DNA of 64,000 nt from Escherichia coli. GTDB lineage: Bacteria > Pseudomonadota > Gammaproteobacteria > Enterobacterales > Enterobacteriaceae. The translations under genes and the position numbers were made by a program. The stretch lies in assembly GCF_001677475.2 (NCBI RefSeq), contig NZ_CP015229.1; one strand, written 5' to 3'. How positions within the stretch are numbered: position 1 is the first letter of the stretch; each line of letters begins with the position of its first letter. Shown one piece after another: positions 39,754 through 50,378 of this stretch. The notes below the pieces were generated by a model that saw only the letters and a program-made list of their open reading frames with translations, made no database searches and had not been told where the DNA came from.

Positions 39754-40075
39754 GAAACCAGAACATGCACACACAAAAAAACCGCTTGCCATGCCGCAAT
39801 CAGTCAGGTTACATTTCCGCTGCACCTCATAAAACGGGTGCCGGGTTTCGCAGCCTGCTAACTACACAAGCGCACAACCGCGCCAGCGGTTTTTTTGTGC
39901 GTACTGTATTGCCACGTTTTTTTCGCGCCAGAATTATGGCGGGGCGTACGGGGCCGACTTCGGTCGGGCCGGGTTCTTGTGTAGCCGGTACTGCGAACCT
40001 CGTACGTCTCGCCACCCACAGTTTCGCAGCTCTGGATGGTAAGTTTTCACAACTTACTACACAAGAGGCCACACC

Positions 40076-40378: not shown

Positions 40379-40768
40379 ATGATTGACGCTCATGACTTCA
40401 CAAGATGGGTGCGCACACAGGACACCCGTCTGGCTCCCGTTCTTCAGGGATTATTTGATCTTTACATCCGTGGTCGTGACAACAGAGCACGCACTACAAA
40501 ACCGGAGAATGCGGACACCCTTTATTTCACAGTAGACGACTGCTACCGCGTGGACTTCACACCACACGGGCTGGCGTTGCACTGCCTGACACCACACGGC
40601 GAATCACTGCTGGCGTATTACGACTCCCCGGCCTCCGTATTTGCGGCAATGCTGGCGCATCGCACTGCTGGCGGGTGTGCCTCGCTGAGTGAATACACCG
40701 CTGAATTTAACCGCCTTTCCGCCATCTTCTCGCAGGAGTGGCAGCGCGTGACGGGATACCAGCCATGA
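40379..40768 (+). CDS. phage early protein, unknown function
   Basis: 129-aa ORF; stop overlaps gpA start (ATGA). Confidence 0.5.
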   Translation: MIDAHDFTRWVRTQDTRLAPVLQGLFDLYIRGRDNRARTTKPENADTLYFTVDDCYRVDFTPHGLALHCLTPHGESLLAYYDSPASVFAAMLAHRTAGGCASLSEYTAEFNRLSAIFSQEWQRVTGYQP

Positions 40769-43605
40769 GTGAGTTTGCATGGAGCTGGAATGAACCACGG
40801 CCAGCCATTGATCCGGCCAGATTTACGGAGCGCAGGCAGGAAACTGAAACCGACCTGCAACGCGCCATCCGTTACTACCTTGAGGCAGACAAAAGGGCAC
40901 AGGAAGAACAGGAAGCGAAGGAAGAAGCCTTTTTCGCACAATCCACCGTGGGTAAAAAACTCATGGCATCCCTTGAGGAAGCCGGACAGCGTGAAAAGCT
41001 GGCACAGAGCATCATCAGTAAGCGCCGGGCAACAGAACAAGACACGGTAGCCCGTGCCTTTGCCACACTAAAGGCACTACCTGTTTATCTGCGTGAACCA
41101 CTGAGCCGCCACCTCTCTTTCCTGCGCAAAAAACAGGAAGCCGATCGCCGGAAAGGCAAAAAGAGCTGGCAGGCGGAACGCTATGCACGCGGAACCCTGC
41201 GCAAAATATTCGAACGTCTGGACCGCACCGACAGCCGCTGGCTGACACCGGGTTATCGCGCCCTTGCCGGACGCGAACGCCTGGACGATTTGCTTTACCT
41301 GCCGCAGCTCAACAAACACCAGATACAGACGCTGGCCACCATGACAGCGGCGATGTTCAGCAGCACCTTCGAAAAACTCTGCGATGGCTTTGGCGCGACT
41401 GATGGCGAGCTGACCATGGATGTAACGCTGAAGGCGTATCAGATGCTGGCCCGCATGGCGTTACACCTGCACGCCATGCCTCCGCATTATGACGTACTGA
41501 CAACAGACAAAGACCGGAGGAACGAACCAGACACAGAACTGCTGCCGGGCGCAATCCTTCGCCTGACCTGTGCGGAATGGTGGAAACGCAAACTGTGGCT
41601 GTTACGTTGCGAGTGGCGGGAAGAACAACTCCGAGCCGCCTGTCTGGTTTCCAGAAAAACATCGCCCTATCTGAGCCAGGACGCGTTAAGCGAGTTTCGC
41701 GCACAGCGCGAGAAAACACGCGATTTCCTGAAAAGTTTCATGCTGGAAAATGAAGACGGGTTCACGATTGATCTCGAGACGGTGTATTACGCGGGAGTAA
41801 GTAACCCGGTTCACCGTAAGGCAGAAATGATGGCCACCATGAAGGGACTGGAACTTCTGGCCGAAGCCCGTGGCGACAGAGCGGTGTTTCTGACCGTCAC
41901 CTGCCCGTCAAAATACCACGCAACAACGGAGAACGGTCATCCGAACCCCAAATGGAACGGGGCCACCATGCGCGACTCCAGCGATTACCTGGTTAACACG
42001 TTTTTTGCGGCGGTCCGCAAAAAACTGAACCGCGACGGCCTGCGCTGGTATGGCATCCGCACGGTGGAGCCTCACCATGACGGCACTGTGCACTGGCATA
42101 TGATGGTCTTTGCACATCCGGACGAGATTGAAACCATCGTGTCCCACGTCTGCGATATTGCCATTCAGGAGGACCGCCACGAGCTGGGCGATGACATAAC
42201 TCCGCGTTTTAAGGCGGAGTATGTCGACGGCTCAAAAGGCACACCAACCAGCTACATCGCCACCTACATCGGAAAGAACTTGGACAGCCGCGCCGTGGAT
42301 GGCATCGACCCGAAAACGGGCAAGCCACGCGTTGACCACGAAACCGGAAAATCAATGGCCGAGAGCGTGGAGCGCGCCATCGGCTGGGCGCGCCTTCACC
42401 GGGTCCGTCAGTTCCAGTTCTTTGGCATCCCCTCCCGTCAGGTGTGGCGTGAACTGCGCCGCCTTGCCAGCCAGATGGCACGCAATCCGGAAGGCCCGCA
42501 ACGGCTGAAAGATGATGCAATGGATGCGGTACTCGCTGCCGCCGATGCCGGGTGTTTTGCCACCTACATTGAAAAACAGGGTGGCGTGCTTGTTCCACGC
42601 AAGGACTACCTGATTCGCACCGCCTACGACCTCGCAGATGAGCTGAACGATTACGGCGAACAGAGCGTACAGATTTACGGGATCTGGTCACCACTCATCG
42701 GGGAATCCTCCCGTGTGTGCACGCATCCGGATAACTGGAAGTTGGTAAGACGTAAACCAGAACCGGAAGACAACGCCCACGAAAATGGTTTTGACCTTCA
42801 GGGCGGCCCTGCCGCCCCTTGGACTCGTGGCAATAACTGTCCCCGTGTACAGGAAACGGACAATAACGGGACAGAACTGCCGGAAGAACGGCCAGCACCG
42901 TGGCCGCAGCTCCCTGACGGCGTTGAAGTGAACGAATGGATGCGCTCACTGAAACAGCACGAACGCCGGGCGCTGATGCGTTCGCTTCGTGACAAACAGG
43001 CAAAAAACAGCAGTGATGAAATGCAGAGCTGGACACAGAGCCGCAAACAGCAGCGGCCTTTGCCTGATAACCACGAATTACTCGCTAAAGAATGGCGGGA
43101 GTCTGCTGAATCTCTCGGCCTGCATATCGGTGAACAACAGATGCAGCACCTGTTACGGGGCGGCAGCCTGTACGTTGACGGCAGCATCATTGCACCGCAG
43201 GGATTTGAAATTGTACGCAAACCGGATACCCGCCCGGACAGCCGAATCACGCAGCTCTGGCAGCGCCTGAGCCGTAATCATGGCGTAAGCAGCACGGAGA
43301 TCCGCCATAACCCGGTCGCCAGCTATCTGGCACAGCTGGGGGCATCAGACCCTGAAGTCGCCGCACGCCTGGCATCCACACTTCAGCAGGACCAGAACAC
43401 CATGAAAACACCCGTTACCGTGCTTTCTGACATGCTGCGCGCCATCCGCGACGCAGAGCACGCACAGAGAATCAGTGAAACCACTGAACGCGCCCGCCGC
43501 AAAGCAGACCTGCTGCGGGGTGGCCTGACCAGTGGAAACAAAAAACAGACAGAAACGGGACTCATGAATCCCGTAAATGAGCAAAAAACGCGCAGCGATA
43601 TATGA
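40765..43605 (+). CDS. rolling-circle replication initiator, P2 gpA-like, with long C-terminal extension
   Basis: ORF 40738..43605; start set at ATG 40765 (MSEFAWSW); HWHMMVF and ATYIGKN motifs typical of gpA-family nicking proteins; 946 aa. Confidence 0.8.
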   Translation: MSEFAWSWNEPRPAIDPARFTERRQETETDLQRAIRYYLEADKRAQEEQEAKEEAFFAQSTVGKKLMASLEEAGQREKLAQSIISKRRATEQDTVARAFATLKALPVYLREPLSRHLSFLRKKQEADRRKGKKSWQAERYARGTLRKIFERLDRTDSRWLTPGYRALAGRERLDDLLYLPQLNKHQIQTLATMTAAMFSSTFEKLCDGFGATDGELTMDVTLKAYQMLARMALHLHAMPPHYDVLTTDKDRRNEPDTELLPGAILRLTCAEWWKRKLWLLRCEWREEQLRAACLVSRKTSPYLSQDALSEFRAQREKTRDFLKSFMLENEDGFTIDLETVYYAGVSNPVHRKAEMMATMKGLELLAEARGDRAVFLTVTCPSKYHATTENGHPNPKWNGATMRDSSDYLVNTFFAAVRKKLNRDGLRWYGIRTVEPHHDGTVHWHMMVFAHPDEIETIVSHVCDIAIQEDRHELGDDITPRFKAEYVDGSKGTPTSYIATYIGKNLDSRAVDGIDPKTGKPRVDHETGKSMAESVERAIGWARLHRVRQFQFFGIPSRQVWRELRRLASQMARNPEGPQRLKDDAMDAVLAAADAGCFATYIEKQGGVLVPRKDYLIRTAYDLADELNDYGEQSVQIYGIWSPLIGESSRVCTHPDNWKLVRRKPEPEDNAHENGFDLQGGPAAPWTRGNNCPRVQETDNNGTELPEERPAPWPQLPDGVEVNEWMRSLKQHERRALMRSLRDKQAKNSSDEMQSWTQSRKQQRPLPDNHELLAKEWRESAESLGLHIGEQQMQHLLRGGSLYVDGSIIAPQGFEIVRKPDTRPDSRITQLWQRLSRNHGVSSTEIRHNPVASYLAQLGASDPEVAARLASTLQQDQNTMKTPVTVLSDMLRAIRDAEHAQRISETTERARRKADLLRGGLTSGNKKQTETGLMNPVNEQKTRSDI

Positions 43606-43650
43606 AGCGCGCACAAAACAGGCAAAAACGGGATTTTAGAATCCCGTAAA
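43554..43650. promoter_or_regulatory. twin palindromic operator-like sites flanking the putative parM promoter
   Basis: AACGGGACTCATGAATCCCGTAAA at 43554..43577 and AACGGGATTTTAGAATCCCGTAAA at 43627..43650, each an inverted repeat ACGGGA-N8-TCCCGT; TATAT between them. Confidence 0.5.
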
Positions 43651-43681
43651 CGATTAATTAATCAACATAAGGAAAAGCGAC

Positions 43682-44641
43682 ATGAAAATTTGTATCGACG
43701 ACGGCTCCACCAACATCAAGCTGGCATGGACTGAGAACGGCGAACGCCGCAACGCCATCAGCCCGAACAGCTTCAAGTCGGAATGGTCTGCGCCGTTCGG
43801 TGGCACGCAGCCCGCGAACTACATGCTTGATGGCGTGCGCTATGGTTTTGATCCGGTCAGCGATCGCTTTGTCCAGACGACCGACACGCAATACCAGTAC
43901 AGCGATGTGAATGTCATTGCCATTCATCACGCGCTGGTCAAATCAGGCATCACGCCACAGGAGGTGGATGTGGTTGTCACCCTGCCACTGAGCGAGTATT
44001 TCGACACAAACGCACAGCCGGACATGGCCAACATCAACCGCAAAAAAGCGAACGTTATGCGCCCGGTGGAGTACCAGAACGGCGAAGCATTCACTATCCG
44101 TAACGTGCGGGTTATGCCTGAATCCATTCCGGCTGGCTTTAAGGCACTGGCTGACATGAGTCCGTTTGAATCCCTGCTGATTGTAGATTTGGGCGGAACC
44201 ACGCTGGATGTGGCAAAGGTTCAGGGGCAACTGGCAGGTATCAGCCAGGTGTTTTGCGATCCACACGTAGGCGTTTCTCTGATGGCCGATGCCGTACTGT
44301 CGGTGATGGCCACTAACGGTATGCGCACCAGTCACCACATCGCCAATACCATTATCGAACATCGCCATAATGAAGCCTGGCTGCGCCAGCACATCCACAA
44401 TGACGCGCATTACGCCAGCCTGATGGAGGTTATTCGTGAAAAGGAAGAAACACTGAAACAACGCGTGATCCGCGCGCTGGCGGGTTTTTCGGGTTACGGG
44501 CGGGTGATGGTTGTCGGTGGAGGGGCGGAGATTGTGGCACCCGCTATCCGCGAAGCCTGCGGAGTTCATGCGACTTTCATCGCGGACGGGGTGCCACAGT
44601 TTGCTCTGGTTAATGGGCTGTACGCAATGGACAAGGAGTAA
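43682..44641 (+). CDS. actin-like ATPase, ParM/StbA family
   Basis: 319-aa ORF; motifs DDGSTNIKL, SPNSFK, YSDVNVIAIHHAL, MPESIPAG, DLGGTTLD, VVGGGAEI align with plasmid R1 ParM as I recall it. Confidence 0.85.
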   Translation: MKICIDDGSTNIKLAWTENGERRNAISPNSFKSEWSAPFGGTQPANYMLDGVRYGFDPVSDRFVQTTDTQYQYSDVNVIAIHHALVKSGITPQEVDVVVTLPLSEYFDTNAQPDMANINRKKANVMRPVEYQNGEAFTIRNVRVMPESIPAGFKALADMSPFESLLIVDLGGTTLDVAKVQGQLAGISQVFCDPHVGVSLMADAVLSVMATNGMRTSHHIANTIIEHRHNEAWLRQHIHNDAHYASLMEVIREKEETLKQRVIRALAGFSGYGRVMVVGGGAEIVAPAIREACGVHATFIADGVPQFALVNGLYAMDKE

Positions 44642-44645
44642 ACCA

Positions 44646-44957
44646 ATGACGACACCAACCAGACGGATAAGTTTCTATCTGAAGCCTGCGGCCGTCAAGA
44701 ACGAAAGCGAAGCATGCGCCTGGCTGGACAGCCTTACACCAGAAGCCCGCAAAAGCGGCCAACGCGTGGCTTTTCTGGCCGGGCTGGCACTTCTGAAAAT
44801 GAATCCGGCAGAGGCTTACCGACTGGCTGCATGGGCTGACGATGAGGCGTTATCAGTGACACAAACCAGGACAGAATGCCCCGCGTCACAGCCAGTATCA
44901 ACCGCACAGATAACCAGTCAGATGGCCGGAAATATCCGGGCGTTATTTCCCGAATAA
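44646..44957 (+). CDS. ParR-like centromere-binding/repressor protein
   Basis: ATG 44646 with GGAG RBS, 103 aa; RRISFYLKP...AWLDSLTPEARKSGQRVAFLAGLAL resembles R1 ParR N-terminal RHH region; immediately downstream of parM-like gene. Confidence 0.7.
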   Translation: MTTPTRRISFYLKPAAVKNESEACAWLDSLTPEARKSGQRVAFLAGLALLKMNPAEAYRLAAWADDEALSVTQTRTECPASQPVSTAQITSQMAGNIRALFPE

Positions 44958-44962
44958 CACAA

Positions 44963-44990
44963 CATCAGGGCGCATCCGCCCTGATGACTT
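44963..44990 (+). terminator. putative terminator after parR-like gene
   Basis: 10-bp stem CATCAGGGCG/CGCCCTGATG with 4-nt loop, followed by short T-rich stretch. Confidence 0.4.
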
Positions 44991-45020
44991 TAATCCGGGA
45001 ACATAAACAAGGGGGACACA

Positions 45021-45356
45021 ATGCAACACATTGACAGAGAAAAAGCGCAGCGACTGATTGAGCGAATGGAAGCGCTGGCGAAAGAAGAAAATGTCAACAT
45101 CCAAAAAATAGCTGAATGTGGCCAGATAGTTCTTCGTCGTGAAAAAGACATCAAGCAACTGATGTCTGGCGAAATCAGCAAAACATGGACTTCAGGCAAG
45201 AAGACGATTTATTGCAGCTTCTGCAATAAATCCCAGCACGAAGTCATAAAGGTGATTGCCGGACCGTCTGTTTACATCTGCAATGAGTGCGTGGATTTGT
45301 GCAATGAAATTATCAGAAGAGAAGTGACAGACCATGAAGAAAAAACGCATGAATGA
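45021..45356 (+). CDS. ClpX-type C4 zinc-binding-domain protein (novel N-terminal helical region fused to ClpX-like ZBD)
   Basis: 111-aa ORF, GGGGGA RBS; residues [38 protein letters not shown] closely match E. coli ClpX N-domain (about 32 of 39 residues by my recollection); no AAA+ module. Confidence 0.8.
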
Positions 45357-45943
45357 CGAATTTGACGGCTTTTAATTTTATCGGGGCACACTGTCTCCCC
45401 CCGCACGAGGAAAACACGATGAAAAAATACGAATACATGCTAATGAAAGAAGCACTGCGGGCTGGTCTGGCTCCCTGTCCTGTATCCGTAGAAGCTGTTG
45501 TTGGGAACACGATTTTCCGAACGCTGCGAAATCGCGTATCCGTGAAGATGATTCACCAACCACCCAAATCTACCAGCATGATCTATCTGCCGCTGCCCGA
45601 GGCTATCAAACTTATGCGTTCGCTGAAATTTGCGATTTGGATGCAGACACAACTCAACAAAGCGGTGCAAAACACCTTCGTTAAGAAACTGATGCCGGAG
45701 CTTGCTGCCAGATGTGCAAAATGTACCAGACCCGCACTTCAATTTGATCTGTCATTGATTCAACAAGCTACGGAGGCAGAACTGTACCGCCTGTCACCTC
45801 TCCATGATGTTCACACGGAAGCCTCAGAAATGTTCCGGCTCATGTTTCAATTTAATTTTGCCGTTCGACGCACACGCGTTCAGGTCAATCGCATGATGCA
45901 GGCGCAGGAAGAGCTGACGCAACACAAAGGAGGCAACCAGTGA
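45353..45943 (+). CDS. hypothetical protein, translationally coupled to ZBD gene
   Basis: ATG 45353 overlaps upstream stop (ATGA); alternative start ATG 45416 with GAGGAA RBS; no recognisable motif. Confidence 0.55.
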
Positions 45944-46464
45944 GCAAGATTGACTATCAGGCATTACGCGAACGCTATTCACCTGCGCCAGTACCGAAAT
46001 GCCCTATTTGCGGCGAGGAAATGTCAATTCAGCGAATATCTGGAGCACAGGTTGTTTATGCCTGCTCCGGTTATGGTGATGATGGAGATTTCAAAATTGG
46101 TCGAACTCTTGCCGACGAACATTATGAAAAATCGCGCGTAACAGTGTTGGATGTCGGGGATCCTGAAGTATTGGCGCTACTTGATTGGCTGGAAACTAAA
46201 GACAACCGAATCGCTGAACTGGAAAAAATCGCCACTGACTATGCACTTAAATTCCAGAAAGCACAGGACGCATTAAAGCATGCCGCTTTGCTGCATAGCC
46301 GGACGGCGCAACAAACAAATAATTTTGCAGTATCGCTTCCGGACATAAGCGAATATTTCATTAATGACGTATTTCAGCCCTTGCGATACGAGCGGGATGT
46401 TGAAAGAGCCATCATAAAGGCTGGCGGAAAAGCATTGTGGCAGGAGAAACACGACGACAGATAA
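45940..46464 (+). CDS. hypothetical protein with N-terminal Cys-rich (zinc-ribbon-like) segment
   Basis: GTG start overlapping upstream stop (GTGA) with AGGAGG RBS; CPICGEE...YACSG; 174 aa. Confidence 0.55.
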   Translation: MSKIDYQALRERYSPAPVPKCPICGEEMSIQRISGAQVVYACSGYGDDGDFKIGRTLADEHYEKSRVTVLDVGDPEVLALLDWLETKDNRIAELEKIATDYALKFQKAQDALKHAALLHSRTAQQTNNFAVSLPDISEYFINDVFQPLRYERDVERAIIKAGGKALWQEKHDDR

Positions 46465-46516
46465 AAATAACACCTGATCTCCCTCAAACCAGGGCGATAA
46501 TCGCGCATCGCCCTGC

Positions 46517-46543
46517 TGCACAATAGTGCACAAATTTGCACAA
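46517..46543. repeat. three TGCACAA direct repeats at exact 10-bp phasing
   Basis: TGCACAA at 46517, 46527 and 46537; helical-turn periodicity suggests protein binding on one DNA face. Confidence 0.6.
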
Positions 46544-46614
46544 TTTTTTTGAACGACTTTTTGCCCTTCCGGCCCGCGTGGCGGCTGGATCCGTCAAGGA
46601 TCCGTGCGTGCACA

Positions 46615-46630
46615 AAAAAACGCGTTTTTT
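46615..46630. other. perfect palindrome AAAAAACGCGTTTTTT inside phage non-coding block
   Basis: Seen directly; preceded by GGATCCGT direct repeats at 46587 and 46598 and followed by G-rich segment. Confidence 0.6.
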
Positions 46631-46914
46631 CTGCGCGCAGGTGACGGGGGAACAGCCCGCGTTTCAGGGGGTAAATAGCGTTCCCTTAACGATGTCGCAG
46701 CGACACGACAGAATGGCCGTATCGCTCACGCTGAGCGTGAAAAATACGTGAGGGATTCTGATTTGATGGGGTGAAAGGTAAGGCCGTCAAAATCGCACTG
46801 AGGCGGCGAGAACATGCAGTCAGCGCGGTGGGATTGTGTAGAGTCTGGCCGTCGATGATAGCGATAAGTCGGAAGATGTCGTGAAATTATCTGATTGATA
46901 CGGGAGCTGGAGAG

Positions 46915-46941
46915 CCGGGGCATAAATTTTTTATGCCCCGG
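46915..46941. other. perfect 12-bp-stem hairpin CCGGGGCATAAA-ttt-TTTATGCCCCGG
   Basis: Seen directly; no flanking U tract on either strand so not a classical intrinsic terminator. Confidence 0.6.
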
Positions 46942-47041
46942 CGAAGCAGCAGACAAGCGAAGCGCGTCAGTGATGCGGCACCTTGCCGACCACACTTCAT
47001 AAGTGCAAAATACGAGCAAAGAAATCAATGGAGGCTGTTTT

Positions 47042-47566
47042 ATGGTCATTAATTACAAGCAGTTACGAGAAAAACGAGAGCAGGTAAAGGAAAGTTTTCG
47101 CCGCAATGAAGATCTGACCCCGCTTGTACACCTTGCCCAGGGAATTGTTGATGCTTATGAAATCTCTCTGGAGCTGCCATCACAGACATGGACGGATAGC
47201 GACGGTAATCGCCAGCATTACGTTTCATGCGGACTGGAAACAACTGAAGGGTTTCGCAGAATGCCTTTATCTCAGATTCCTGCCGCTACCCCCAAAGCAA
47301 GGGGCGGCAATGATGAGCGAAAACTGATTTTCAGCATTGAGACAGTGGTTGACGACACACCTGGCGAAGTCGCGTTCGTGCATACTCCTCTTTCGATCGC
47401 AATGTATAACGATGAAATACAGGTTCGCGTTAATAATAATATCGTGCCACTTAAAGAAGGTAATTCACCATACACCACCGTTTGTGAAGCCATTCAATAT
47501 TACGTTCTCTCTGAAATTGATAATCTCAAGCCTGACGGCACCCAGAAAATGGTTCAACTCTGGTAA
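47042..47566 (+). CDS. hypothetical protein (orphan gene between non-coding block and portal gene)
   Basis: ATG 47042 with GGAGG RBS (ORF track 47003..47566); followed by strong terminator. Confidence 0.55.
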   Translation: MVINYKQLREKREQVKESFRRNEDLTPLVHLAQGIVDAYEISLELPSQTWTDSDGNRQHYVSCGLETTEGFRRMPLSQIPAATPKARGGNDERKLIFSIETVVDDTPGEVAFVHTPLSIAMYNDEIQVRVNNNIVPLKEGNSPYTTVCEAIQYYVLSEIDNLKPDGTQKMVQLW

Positions 47567-47572
47567 AAAGGA

Positions 47573-47597
47573 CAGCCCCATCACGGGGCTGTTTTTT
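47573..47597. terminator. bidirectional intrinsic terminator between convergent orfZ and portal gene
   Basis: Stem CAGCCCC/GGGGCTG followed by T6 on plus strand and T-rich tract on minus strand; portal stop codon lies in the loop. Confidence 0.7.
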
Positions 47598-48627
47598 CAT
47601 CAAGAAGAGCATAAGAATTAAAACGGATCACCTCTTCGCCAAGCCAGTCATTGATATGCTTCATAGCCTCCATGACGGGCATCAGCTCGTTAATTGCGTA
47701 AACCCGCGCGGCCTTCTCCACATCACCAAACGCACTTTTTTCACCCGGCATCGCCCCCATCAGTTGCGGCGGAACGCGGTGCGCAGCCAGCACATCATCA
47801 CGGGATGCCGCCTTAACATTCATGAACTCATCCTTTGCGGTGATCTGCTGGAACGGCAAAATTTGCACCCCCTCTTTGCCCCCGTTGGGCGCATGAATGA
47901 GCACGTTTTTAAACGCACCACCACCACGCGCACCCTGTAGCGTTTCTTTCAGGGAGTCCATGCTTTCGCGGTTTACCTGCGCTGCACCGATGTAGATGAT
48001 GCACCCGGCGTGGGATCCGTTGTCGTAATACAGTTTTCTGAACATGTCCGCCGAATGAGACAGGCTGGCCGAGAGTAATGCGCCGAGATATTCCGGCATG
48101 CCGTAGATTTCCTGGTTAATGTCAGGATTCATCAGGTGGCACACTTTGCTTGGGCGAAACTGAAACGCGTCCTTGCCATCCTGCACATACCACCATGATT
48201 CAAGATCGCTTCCGCGTCGCATGTATTTCGCCAGGGCGTGCCGTAATTTAAGCGGTTCGCCGAGCATATTGCTTCGAAGCTCAAGGAATGCGTTACCGAA
48301 CACAAACCAGTCCAGCGCCAGCGCCGAGAAATCCTGCCGGGAAAGCAGCGGGTGCGGGATGTAGCAACCGAGTAATACATTGCGCTTAAAGTAAAGCGCA
48401 GACTGATGCCAGGACGTTTGCCGGGCAGCTCTTGCCAGACCGTACCAGTCCACCGGGGTTTCATACCACCGCCCGTTATCAGCACAGTACATATTGTCCA
48501 GCAGGTCATGCCCGGTCAGGCGATAAGGACCATCAAATGTGAATGCACTGAGCGATGATTCTTTCCTGAGCGCATCAGCGAGATCAATGCGTGAACTCAT
48601 GCGCACTTTTTTATTTTTTCTGCTCAT
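47581..48627 (-). CDS. portal protein, P2 gpQ-like
   Basis: 348-aa ORF, leftward, immediately downstream of terminase ATPase gene with ATGA overlap; size and position as P2 Q. Confidence 0.75.
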   Translation of the reverse strand: MSRKNKKVRMSSRIDLADALRKESSLSAFTFDGPYRLTGHDLLDNMYCADNGRWYETPVDWYGLARAARQTSWHQSALYFKRNVLLGCYIPHPLLSRQDFSALALDWFVFGNAFLELRSNMLGEPLKLRHALAKYMRRGSDLESWWYVQDGKDAFQFRPSKVCHLMNPDINQEIYGMPEYLGALLSASLSHSADMFRKLYYDNGSHAGCIIYIGAAQVNRESMDSLKETLQGARGGGAFKNVLIHAPNGGKEGVQILPFQQITAKDEFMNVKAASRDDVLAAHRVPPQLMGAMPGEKSAFGDVEKAARVYAINELMPVMEAMKHINDWLGEEVIRFNSYALLDEKTAP

Positions 48628-50378
48628 CAGAACTCCATAACCGTGAAACGCTCGTTTTCTCCTTCGCCGCCAATCGGTTCGTTAATGACAGCAAGCATGG
48701 TTGCCCACGCAAGGTCGCCGTGGCTGATCCCCCTCGCGCGGTCCGTTTCGTAAGTGATAAAGCCGCCCGGTGTTTTCACCTTACGCACGGCGTTAAAGGC
48801 CGCGACCAGCTCGCGTTCGGCGCGATCGTATTCCCAGCGCCCGGCACGCATTATTTGCAGCATTTTCAGTACCAGCGACCGTTTTGATGACAGCGTGAAG
48901 GTGTACGGAATAGCAGCAGGGAAAAACCGTTTCACTATCTGATAAACAGCCTCCCCGTTCCCGCCCGTCACATCAATGCCGATGTGTTCCACGTTGTAGC
49001 GATACGTGAACTCTTCAATGACTCTGGCCTGTTCTTCAAACTCCAGCCCCTGAACGCGTCGCGTCTCCACCGTTCGAAAACGGCCACCAGGAACAGCCGG
49101 AGGAACCACCACGGACACAGCGCCGCTGTCGCCGTTGCCACTGCTGCCGTTTGCGTCATACCCAATCCATACCAGACGATTCCCCATCGGGCGGGGAGCA
49201 AAAGGTTTCCAGTCTTTCCAGTCGTCGTATCCGTCAACACCGCAGCCAATCAGGATATTCAGGTTAAATGCCGATTCCCCTTCGCGAACAAACTCACACA
49301 TATAGAGATTGAGGAACTCGTCTTCGGTGTTTTCATCACGGATTTCGTCAATATCGGTGTGTTTCCAGCCGTGATTAACCACATCTTCCAGCGTGACAAT
49401 TTGCCGCCACGTCCGGTCAGGGCAGATAAGCCCGTTATGCAGCGTTTTCCAGTCCACAGAAAAACGCTGGCGTTTATGCGAGGCCTTTTTCTCGTTCCAG
49501 CGGTCGCCGTTCCAGTAGGCGTATGCCTCGTGCGTTTCGGTGGATGGCGTGGAGAAGTAGGTGCGCCGCAGTCCGCTGAGGGTTGCCATAGCGCCAGCCA
49601 CCTTGCGCAGTTCAGCAAAGCGACTGACCCAGAAAAATTCATCAAAATAAAAATTGCCCGTATAGGACTGTGCCGACGCAGCAGAAGTGCCGAGAAAATG
49701 CAGCTCTGCGCCGTTGGAGAGGATGATTTTATCGCCCCCTTTCAGCTCCACATCAACTTCAGCCGCGGCCTTCTGAATAATGCTTTTAAACTGGAACGCC
49801 TGACGACGCGACGCAGACAAAAAAATCTGGTTACGCTGGTAAGGTTGCGCCACATCGTCACGCAGCGCCATCAGCAGCGCTTCCTGTGCAAAATACCAGG
49901 TTGCCCCAATCTGTCGGGATTTCAGGATCATCCTGTTACGTATCCCGGCTTCCCTGCAAAGGGTCAGGGAGTCAAACCAGCCCCGCTGATGCCACTCCAG
50001 CCTGCTGATGATTTTTTCCCGCAGTGCGGCAATCTGTTCCGGCGTGAAATGATTTTTGAGTTTTTTCGCCCGGCCTTTCTTTCCTGCGGCCATCACATCC
50101 GGCTGGCCATCATGCAGCTTTTTAAGCTGCCGGGTCAGCAGGTCTATTTCCTTAAAGTCACCGCCTGTTTTATTCTGTTTTTCAGTAAGCTGGATGAGGC
50201 GCGCATCGATGGACTGCGTGACACGCTGCACGGGTGGCGCTTCATCCCACTGGTCGCGTTTTTTCCACGCATAAATCGTGTTCGGGTTTATTCCCATCAG
50301 ACGTGATATTTCTGCGGGCGGATAACCCTGCCAGTAAAGTTGCCGCGCACGCTGGCGCACAAAAGCGTCCTGAATCAT
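48627..50378 (-). CDS. terminase large (ATPase) subunit, P2 gpP-like
   Basis: 583-aa ORF; leftward, divergent from capsid genes as in P2; KSRQIGATWYFA ATPase region. Confidence 0.85.
   Translation of the reverse strand: MIQDAFVRQRARQLYWQGYPPAEISRLMGINPNTIYAWKKRDQWDEAPPVQRVTQSIDARLIQLTEKQNKTGGDFKEIDLLTRQLKKLHDGQPDVMAAGKKGRAKKLKNHFTPEQIAALREKIISRLEWHQRGWFDSLTLCREAGIRNRMILKSRQIGATWYFAQEALLMALRDDVAQPYQRNQIFLSASRRQAFQFKSIIQKAAAEVDVELKGGDKIILSNGAELHFLGTSAASAQSYTGNFYFDEFFWVSRFAELRKVAGAMATLSGLRRTYFSTPSTETHEAYAYWNGDRWNEKKASHKRQRFSVDWKTLHNGLICPDRTWRQIVTLEDVVNHGWKHTDIDEIRDENTEDEFLNLYMCEFVREGESAFNLNILIGCGVDGYDDWKDWKPFAPRPMGNRLVWIGYDANGSSGNGDSGAVSVVVPPAVPGGRFRTVETRRVQGLEFEEQARVIEEFTYRYNVEHIGIDVTGGNGEAVYQIVKRFFPAAIPYTFTLSSKRSLVLKMLQIMRAGRWEYDRAERELVAAFNAVRKVKTPGGFITYETDRARGISHGDLAWATMLAVINEPIGGEGENERFTVMEF

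Follow-up and report, generated by a model that had tools for sequence, protein, structure and literature searches.

In Escherichia coli ClpX, the zinc-binding domain at the N-terminus (ZBD) is required for the breakdown of lambda-O, and the F16/I46 patch of this domain is a binding site for lambda-O, SspB and RssB (PMC7804408). Crosslinking showed that ZBDs are obligate dimers; in addition, the isolated host ZBD inhibits RssB-mediated sigma-S degradation when added in trans in vitro (Fig. 1d of that study), and IraD and the ZBD share a site on RssB (PMC7226468). The Ea22 protein of phage lambda consists of a short N-terminus, a coiled coil and a variable C-terminal domain (CTD), which differs between alleles and whose structure was solved by nuclear magnetic resonance; the protein is tetrameric, and a pro-lysogenic effect is documented for the lambda and Stx-phage alleles only (PMC10834534). 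In P2-like phages, the cos-proximal interval between gpA and gpQ (portal) is a diversity hotspot with 1,650 arrangements; partition genes occur in about a quarter of these hotspots, and the cargo includes both defence and non-defence genes, with tin/old and several validated systems located there (Rousset et al. 2022). In this work, we analyse a 64,000-nucleotide stretch of E. coli DNA (contig NZ_CP015229.1 of assembly GCF_001677475.2), referred to below as the window, in which three consecutive open reading frames (ORF1-3) bring together a ClpX-type ZBD protein, an orphan protein and an Ead/Ea22-family protein in this hotspot.

The three genes are arranged as follows.

45021-45356, + strand: ORF1, 111 aa, zf-C4_ClpX protein (phrog_6797, E 8e-57)
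45419-45943, + strand: ORF2, 174 aa, narrow orphan family, predicted to be mostly a helical bundle
45940-46464, + strand: ORF3, 174 aa, Ead/Ea22 family

These are genuine genes: E. coli ETEC4090 has the same block without any difference, and RefSeq names the products there 'ClpX C4-type zinc finger protein', 'hypothetical protein' and 'ead/Ea22-like family protein', respectively. Comparison of diverged copies shows purifying selection on each of the three (dN/dS 0.20-0.56; 0.2-0.37 for ORF2). The first-pass annotation of this DNA, which took the longer frame 45353-45943 for ORF2, read them as one translationally coupled operon, for which a sensor-plus-effector defence system and a module hijacking host proteostasis were both considered plausible. 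We consider instead that the region is probably a mosaic array of accessory cassettes, in which ORF1 is a probable decoy of the ClpX N-domain and ORF2 and ORF3 form a coupled Ea22-type pair, and that no dedicated three-component system is present.

This reading is carried by the distribution of the genes in 5,426 complete E. coli genomes, in which they were counted at a coverage of at least 80%. The parR type of the window, i.e., that of the gene preceding ORF1, occurs in 660 genomes, ORF1 in 111, ORF2 in 28, and the ORF3 allele of the window (coiled coil plus CTD) in 133. ORF1 and ORF2 are found together in 9 genomes, one of them with an ORF1 pseudogene, and ORF2 directly follows parR in 19. 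The genes that had been proposed to act as a unit thus assort separately, and an obligate partnership of ORF1 and ORF2 is excluded, although a looser association is possible.

The gene orders give the same picture of shuffled cassettes. The order ZBD-ORF2-Ea22 is found in L001, L004, L008 and L010, ZBD-ORF2-DUF7446-Ea22 in L012, and ZBD-ORF2-DUF7446, in which no Ea22 domain was detected, in L023. ORF2 is combined with Ea22 and lacks the ZBD gene in L002 and L022 (as SSB-ORF2-Ea22 in the latter); it follows Ea22 in L020 and occurs without the ZBD gene in L011. Conversely, the ZBD gene is accompanied by other genes in phage P88, L025 and L026; in fact, as in P88, a small, overlapping and unrelated gene comes after most copies of ORF1. 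The ORF3 allele often follows parR directly, both ORF1 and ORF2 being absent (for example, in L024). Moreover, the identities to the ORF1 and ORF2 of the window are uncorrelated (91% and 56% in L010, 53% and 94% in L012, and 49% and 78% in L004, respectively), and therefore the alleles must have been recombined.

The boundaries between the genes can be assigned to individual cassettes. The relevant elements are listed below, where SD denotes a Shine-Dalgarno sequence.

44963-44986: perfect 10-bp hairpin CATCAGGGCG-CATC-CGCCCTGATG, located in the constant leader that follows parR
45009-45016, + strand: strong SD of ORF1, AAGGGGGA, conserved in L025 and L024
45357-45418, + strand: 62-nt spacer between ORF1 and ORF2, which is the conserved ORF2-cassette leader and contains SD GAGGA at 45407-45411
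45925-45972, + strand: conserved 48-nt boundary (...KGGNQ stop, SD AAGGAGG, ORF3 start) holding the GTGA overlap
46471-46600: conserved non-coding region closing the cargo block; it contains a terminator-like site, GTGCACAAATTTGCAC + AATTTTTTTG, at 46526-46551

The features on which the operon proposal was built (ATGA at 45353, GTGA at 45940, the DNA hairpin and the strong ribosome-binding site before ORF1) are all present in the sequence. However, of the two overlaps that were taken to chain the genes, only that between ORF2 and ORF3 stands: the GTGA stop-start overlap at 45940-45943, with SD AAGGAGG, is conserved across related loci. The conserved start of ORF2 is the ATG at 45419 (MKKYEY...), and an equivalent start is called by PGAP (the NCBI Prokaryotic Genome Annotation Pipeline) in the identical locus; because of this, there is no stop-start coupling between ORF1 and ORF2, which are separated by the 62-nt spacer. 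The ATG at 45353 was rejected as the ORF2 start on the basis of frame conservation, and is a longest-ORF artefact: in the ORF2 lineage that is most common, a 2-nt indel shifts it out of frame (alignment A1), 7 of 11 lineages are devoid of any in-frame ATG upstream, and the MKK(Y/D)EY start and (G/A)AGGA leader are kept in 10 of the 11. Note that the ORF2 of L010 was called from a downstream Met and has an in-frame ATG 8 codons upstream.

The same ORF2 leader stands directly after the parR stop codon in L002, where ORF1 is absent (alignment A1), and the cassette junctions have in common a GAAT(A/G)AC microhomology that is visible in the alignments. The DNA hairpin at 44963-44986 has no T-run on the + strand, and is terminator-like on the - strand only; it is kept where Ea22 directly follows parR (L024) and lost where ORF2 does so (L002; alignment A3). 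At the other end of ORF2, the 48-nt boundary is found with about 94% identity in more than 100 records of Stx-converting and P22-like phages, at the start of Ea22-like genes, as well as in many plasmids; two Ea22-like genes arranged in tandem are joined by it in phage P13374. We considered the gene upstream of Ea22 in this Stx phage as a possible ORF2 homologue and rejected it: only the terminal KGGNQ is common to the two, and this belongs to the conserved boundary. The boundary thus looks like a recombination or module linker for shuffling Ea22-type genes, and the adjacency of ORF2 and ORF3 is therefore weaker as evidence of a functional relationship. The non-coding sequence after the cargo block (46471-46700) is also conserved in other P2-like phages (Shae_phiSM and Chuche) and probably belongs to the constant, cos-proximal stretch by which the hotspot is delimited; in L008, it has been miscalled as a 75-aa ORF. 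A crude scan of 43500-46464, which gives weak evidence only, did not reveal any sigma-70-like promoter on the + strand, and therefore ORF1-3 are most likely read through from transcription of the upstream gpA/parMR genes.

The assignment of a ClpX ZBD to ORF1 was borne out. The protein comprises a helical hairpin (residues 6-48), a disordered linker (52-59) and a C4 ZBD (61-100, with Cys 65, 68, 87 and 90). Residues 64-99 match Pfam zf-C4_ClpX (PF06689) with E 4.2e-17, the E. coli ClpX ZBD structures 1ovx/2ds5 are matched with E 2e-20, and 31 of 36 residues of the ZBD core are identical to those of E. coli ClpX. Like the domain in ClpX (PDB 1OVX and 2DS5-2DS8), that of ORF1 is a C4 treble-clef with all four Cys and an equivalent of the F16/I46 docking patch, namely F67/I97: in the family alignment (A4), C65, C68, C87, C90 and F67 do not vary, and either I or V occupies position 97. 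Unlike ClpX, ORF1 is a phage-encoded, stand-alone protein that lacks the AAA+ module and whose conserved helical hairpin is attached N-terminally through a disordered linker; in agreement with this, it scores 50 bits against the ClpX equivalog TIGR00382 (cut-off 371), covering model positions 6-53 only. The AlphaFold2 (AF2) model has a predicted local distance difference test score (pLDDT) of 79 (80-92 in the helical hairpin and about 85 in the ZBD, the linker being disordered), and a BFVD fold search with ORF1 returned only other phage ZBDs.

ORF1 belongs to a family that is scattered over unrelated phages. Full-length relatives with 49-54% identity occur in D6 (P1-like) and SSU5-like phage-plasmids, where they also adjoin Ea22-like genes but in a different order; relatives occur alone in Salmonella P2-like prophages (L014-L017). 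Proteins that consist of the ZBD only are found in Pseudomonas phages PP9W2, phi1 and BUCT566, Caulobacter phage Cr30 and Bacillus phage G (gp258), and a stand-alone ClpX-ZBD protein is also present in Klebsiella ST846-OXA48phi9.2. Such stand-alone proteins of phages (records H159-H193) often bear the incorrect name 'Clp protease' or 'carboxylate-amine ligase', and our literature search found no functional study of such zinc-finger proteins.

We propose a decoy mechanism for this first cassette, a stand-alone paralogue of the ClpX N-terminal ZBD joined by a flexible linker to a helical hairpin. Since ORF1 keeps the zinc ligands and the hydrophobic patch, we infer that it forms soluble ZBD dimers. 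By analogy with the host domain, these dimers would compete with ClpX for adaptors and substrates that depend on the N-domain, such as SspB, RssB/sigma-S, and lambda-O-like and MuA-like proteins, and a subset of ClpXP clients would be stabilised as a result. [quoted passage not shown] The helical hairpin might serve in oligomerisation and avidity, or bind a phage-specific partner. Hijacking of host proteostasis is still the best idea for ORF1.

A close functional parallel is with the anti-adaptors IraD, IraM and IraP, which are likewise small proteins that re-route the specificity of an AAA+ protease by titrating an adaptor or the protease. The action proposed for ORF1 differs in that it would mimic the docking domain of the protease itself, and ORF1 was not found to be related in sequence to any of the Ira proteins. 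Among phage proteins, T4 PinA and T7 Gp4.5 are protease modulators directed against Lon.

The second cassette comprises ORF2, a predicted helical protein, translationally coupled to ORF3, an Ea22-type early protein. Both products had been described as lacking an assignable function; this holds for ORF2, a true orphan, and does not for ORF3. ORF2 has no match in sequence searches of Pfam, PHROG, NCBIfam, PADLOC or PDB. Its family consists of only 3 clusters at 50% identity among the 1.84 billion representatives covered by an exhaustive phmmer search, and of 13 clusters at 90%; phmmer and profile searches returned close relatives only, and all the contexts that were examined are enterobacterial P2-like gpA-portal loci. 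Its AF2 model is of moderate confidence (pLDDT 68), and the fold matches are generic helical bundles and thus non-specific.

In contrast, ORF3 matches Pfam Ead_Ea22 (PF13935) with E 1.3e-32 (residues 2-140, aligned to positions 1-134 of a model with 139) and phrog_368 with E 8e-31, which places it in a known phage regulatory family. It resembles lambda Ea22 and P22 Ead both in the family profile and in its general plan of N-terminus, coiled coil and variable CTD: an N-terminal IDYQALRE motif is followed by a variable insert with three Cys, a PEVLALLD motif with the coiled coil, and a distinct CTD. The 'Cys-rich N-terminus' that had been reported corresponds to this insert; the three Cys (C21, C24 and C42) are indeed present, but the description is overstated, as the insert is variable and has only weak matches to Zn-ribbon families in Pfam (E 0.02-0.4). 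ORF3 differs from lambda Ea22 in this 3-Cys insert, in its location in a P2-family hotspot instead of the lambdoid exo-xis region, in being a 3'-truncated allele, and in its CTD, which is unrelated: no PDB match was obtained for the CTD at E <= 1 except for one chance match, and thus a lambda-type CTD was not recognised. The truncation is due to a rearrangement at 46440-46470, alleles of 196 aa being present in L002 and L024. By analogy with the lambda and Stx-phage alleles, ORF3 probably biases the outcome of the lysis-lysogeny decision, and ORF2 may be its partner. In addition, the database protein P0004 is a fusion of ORF2 with an Ea22 tail; together with the 3' shortening of ORF3, this fusion suggests that the cargo block is deletion-prone.

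The window is part of an E. coli chromosome, as indicated by the host small RNAs RprA and rydB, and contains a P2-family prophage from about 35.7 kb onward. The prophage is of the P88-like, parMR-bearing type (Xuanwuvirus): Escherichia phage P88 and Xuanwuvirus P884B11 (Peduoviridae) match the flanks of the locus with 96-97% identity, but lack its three-gene interior. The genes surrounding ORF1-3 are as follows.

40738-43605: gpA-type replication endonuclease, 955 aa
43682-44641: ParM
44646-44957, + strand: parR-like gene (Plasmid_stab_B), the final constant gene ahead of the variable cargo; it matches PHROG 2515 (partition protein) with E 5e-57
47003-47566, likely start 47042, + strand: small extra gene between the cargo block and portal (phrog_5091, E 9e-67)
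47581-48627, opposite strand to ORF1-3: portal
48627-50378, opposite strand to ORF1-3: large terminase

The parR equivalent of the identical locus is named 'plasmid partitioning/stability family protein' in RefSeq. ORF1-3 therefore occupy the same gpA-gpQ (tin/old) interval as the hotspot of Rousset et al. (2022), likewise adjacent to parMR, and the same proteins occur there: Table S5A of that study, which covers 18,150 loci, includes WP_047657269, WP_022631071 and WP_022631072 in arrangements of the type 'StbA + Plasmid_stab_B + zf-C4_ClpX + hypothetical + Ead_Ea22'. These arrangements were catalogued, yet they are not among the systems described there as tested. We also considered whether ORF1-3 correspond to the validated system of three hypothetical proteins in that study, and rejected this identification: the genes of that system have no predicted domains, whereas ORF1 and ORF3 have clear Pfam domains, and the peptide strings of ORF1-3 are absent from the portions of the supplement that were searched.

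Some observations do not fit easily with independent cassettes and weigh against our reading. In 6 of the roughly 10 lineages of ORF2, the gene immediately 5' of it is ORF1, and one of these lineages, L010, has a different upstream context; among parR-type loci, the two genes are modestly enriched together (odds ratio 2.5, Fisher p = 0.03, uncorrected for shared ancestry); an Ea22-like gene adjoins almost every ORF2; and the helical hairpin of ORF1, although kept across the family (alignment A4), has no Pfam match and its role is unexplained. The adjacency and the enrichment could be accommodated if ORF1 and ORF2, with or without Ea22, formed a functional module, in which the ZBD recognises or stabilises ORF2 or bridges it to ClpXP, giving a protease-gated switch similar to a toxin-antitoxin (TA) system or a lysis-lysogeny timer. 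The adjacency is indeed accompanied by a conserved spacer of 62-66 nt in five diverged combinations (the window, L004, L008, L010 and L012/L023), and other E. coli loci keep ORF1 with the ORF2 leader and a 5' remnant of ORF2 (H224-H235), suggesting that the pair was ancestrally more widespread. However, 19 of the 28 genomes with ORF2 lack ORF1, about 100 of the 111 with ORF1 lack ORF2, and at least four unrelated genes follow ORF1 elsewhere; in view of these counts, the uncorrelated allele identities and the lack of translational coupling between the pair, we regard such a module as unlikely. A different role for ORF1, that of an adaptor instead of a decoy, would make it a dominant-negative or bridging subunit that forms heterodimers with the ZBDs of ClpX and whose helical hairpin recruits a protein of the phage or the host to ClpXP for degradation. 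The identity of 31 of 36 residues to the host ZBD and the obligate dimerisation of ZBDs (PMC7226468) would permit this, and a conserved extra domain on a flexible linker resembles an adaptor architecture. Nevertheless, the three ZBD dimers of the ClpX hexamer form intramolecularly at high local concentration, which would disfavour exchange with a free domain, and the more diverged members of the family (L004 and L018 types) reach only some 60-65% identity with the host ZBD, as estimated by eye on alignment A4; this role therefore seems to us very improbable.

The proposal of an anti-phage defence system, i.e., a sensor and an effector expressed from the prophage, also fared poorly, and we now think it improbable. 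The surroundings are suggestive: the hotspot houses tin/old and several validated systems, and TA modules (YafO and Phd/Doc) occupy the same slot in sister prophages. Phage Mu needs ClpX, and a ZBD decoy could in principle exclude phages with this requirement. However, a search of PADLOC-DB v2 with ORF1-3 and three neighbouring proteins gave no family at E <= 0.1, and ORF1-3 contain no enzymatic or effector domain. The independent assortment of the genes, the lack of a detected promoter of their own and their orientation, which is that of the early/replication genes, also speak against such a system. In addition, the hotspot bears non-defence cargo as well (Rousset et al. 2022), Ea22 is characterised as lysogeny-biasing and not as acting in defence, and the literature search yielded nothing specific on Ea22 in defence.

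With the mosaic-cassette reading, the three-gene 'system' dissolves into ordinary cargo of an already-mapped hotspot, and we no longer count it among the candidate defence systems. Its lasting yield is a clearly delimited family of ClpX N-domain copies encoded by phages, with a helical hairpin, a linker and a ZBD. If these proteins are decoys, they would represent a simple viral route to re-direct a central host protease, and would provide a ready-made tool to block adaptor-dependent ClpXP degradation selectively. More tentatively, ORF1 might represent a widespread class of phage mimics of the ClpX docking domain that reprogram ClpXP, and that here also gate the stability of ORF2/Ea22 or of neighbouring antitoxins (for example, Phd), thereby coupling host proteolysis to the lysis-lysogeny decision or to the exclusion of ClpX-dependent phages (for example, Mu). 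As for the orphan ORF2, it is now tied to Ea22-type genes.

Several further features were observed in the prophage and its relatives. In L026 (E. coli C7, 2501-3754), ORF1 is followed by a 5' remnant of ORF2 and then by a convergent Phd/Doc toxin-antitoxin pair, and a YafO toxin gene is found in the same slot of a sister prophage (L003, 4818-5198). The Phd protein of phage P1 is a ClpXP substrate, and the location of a ClpX-ZBD mimic next to Phd/Doc may be either meaningful or a coincidence.

The small gene at 47042 is missing from the otherwise identical ETEC4090 locus, and has distant relatives (35-37% identity over about 55 aa) in the 167-aa genes at the same position of L008 and L012. In the non-coding stretch before this gene, there is a perfect 13-bp inverted repeat at 46914-46942 (GCCGGGGCATAAA/TTTATGCCCCGGC, with a 3-nt loop), which may terminate transcription in both directions. 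A pair of nearly identical 20-nt palindromes (ACGGGAyTC....TCCCGT, each flanked by AAA) at 43555-43574 and 43628-43647, 73 bp apart, straddle the end of gpA just 5' of parM, and may be a parC centromere or a ParR operator. In the early region of the prophage (39822-40019, + strand), Rfam matches to isrK (39822-39896, 66.5 bits) and to C4 antisense RNA (39932-40019, 83 bits) suggest an immunity or antirepressor module of the P1/P7 c4-antisense type in this P2-family phage.

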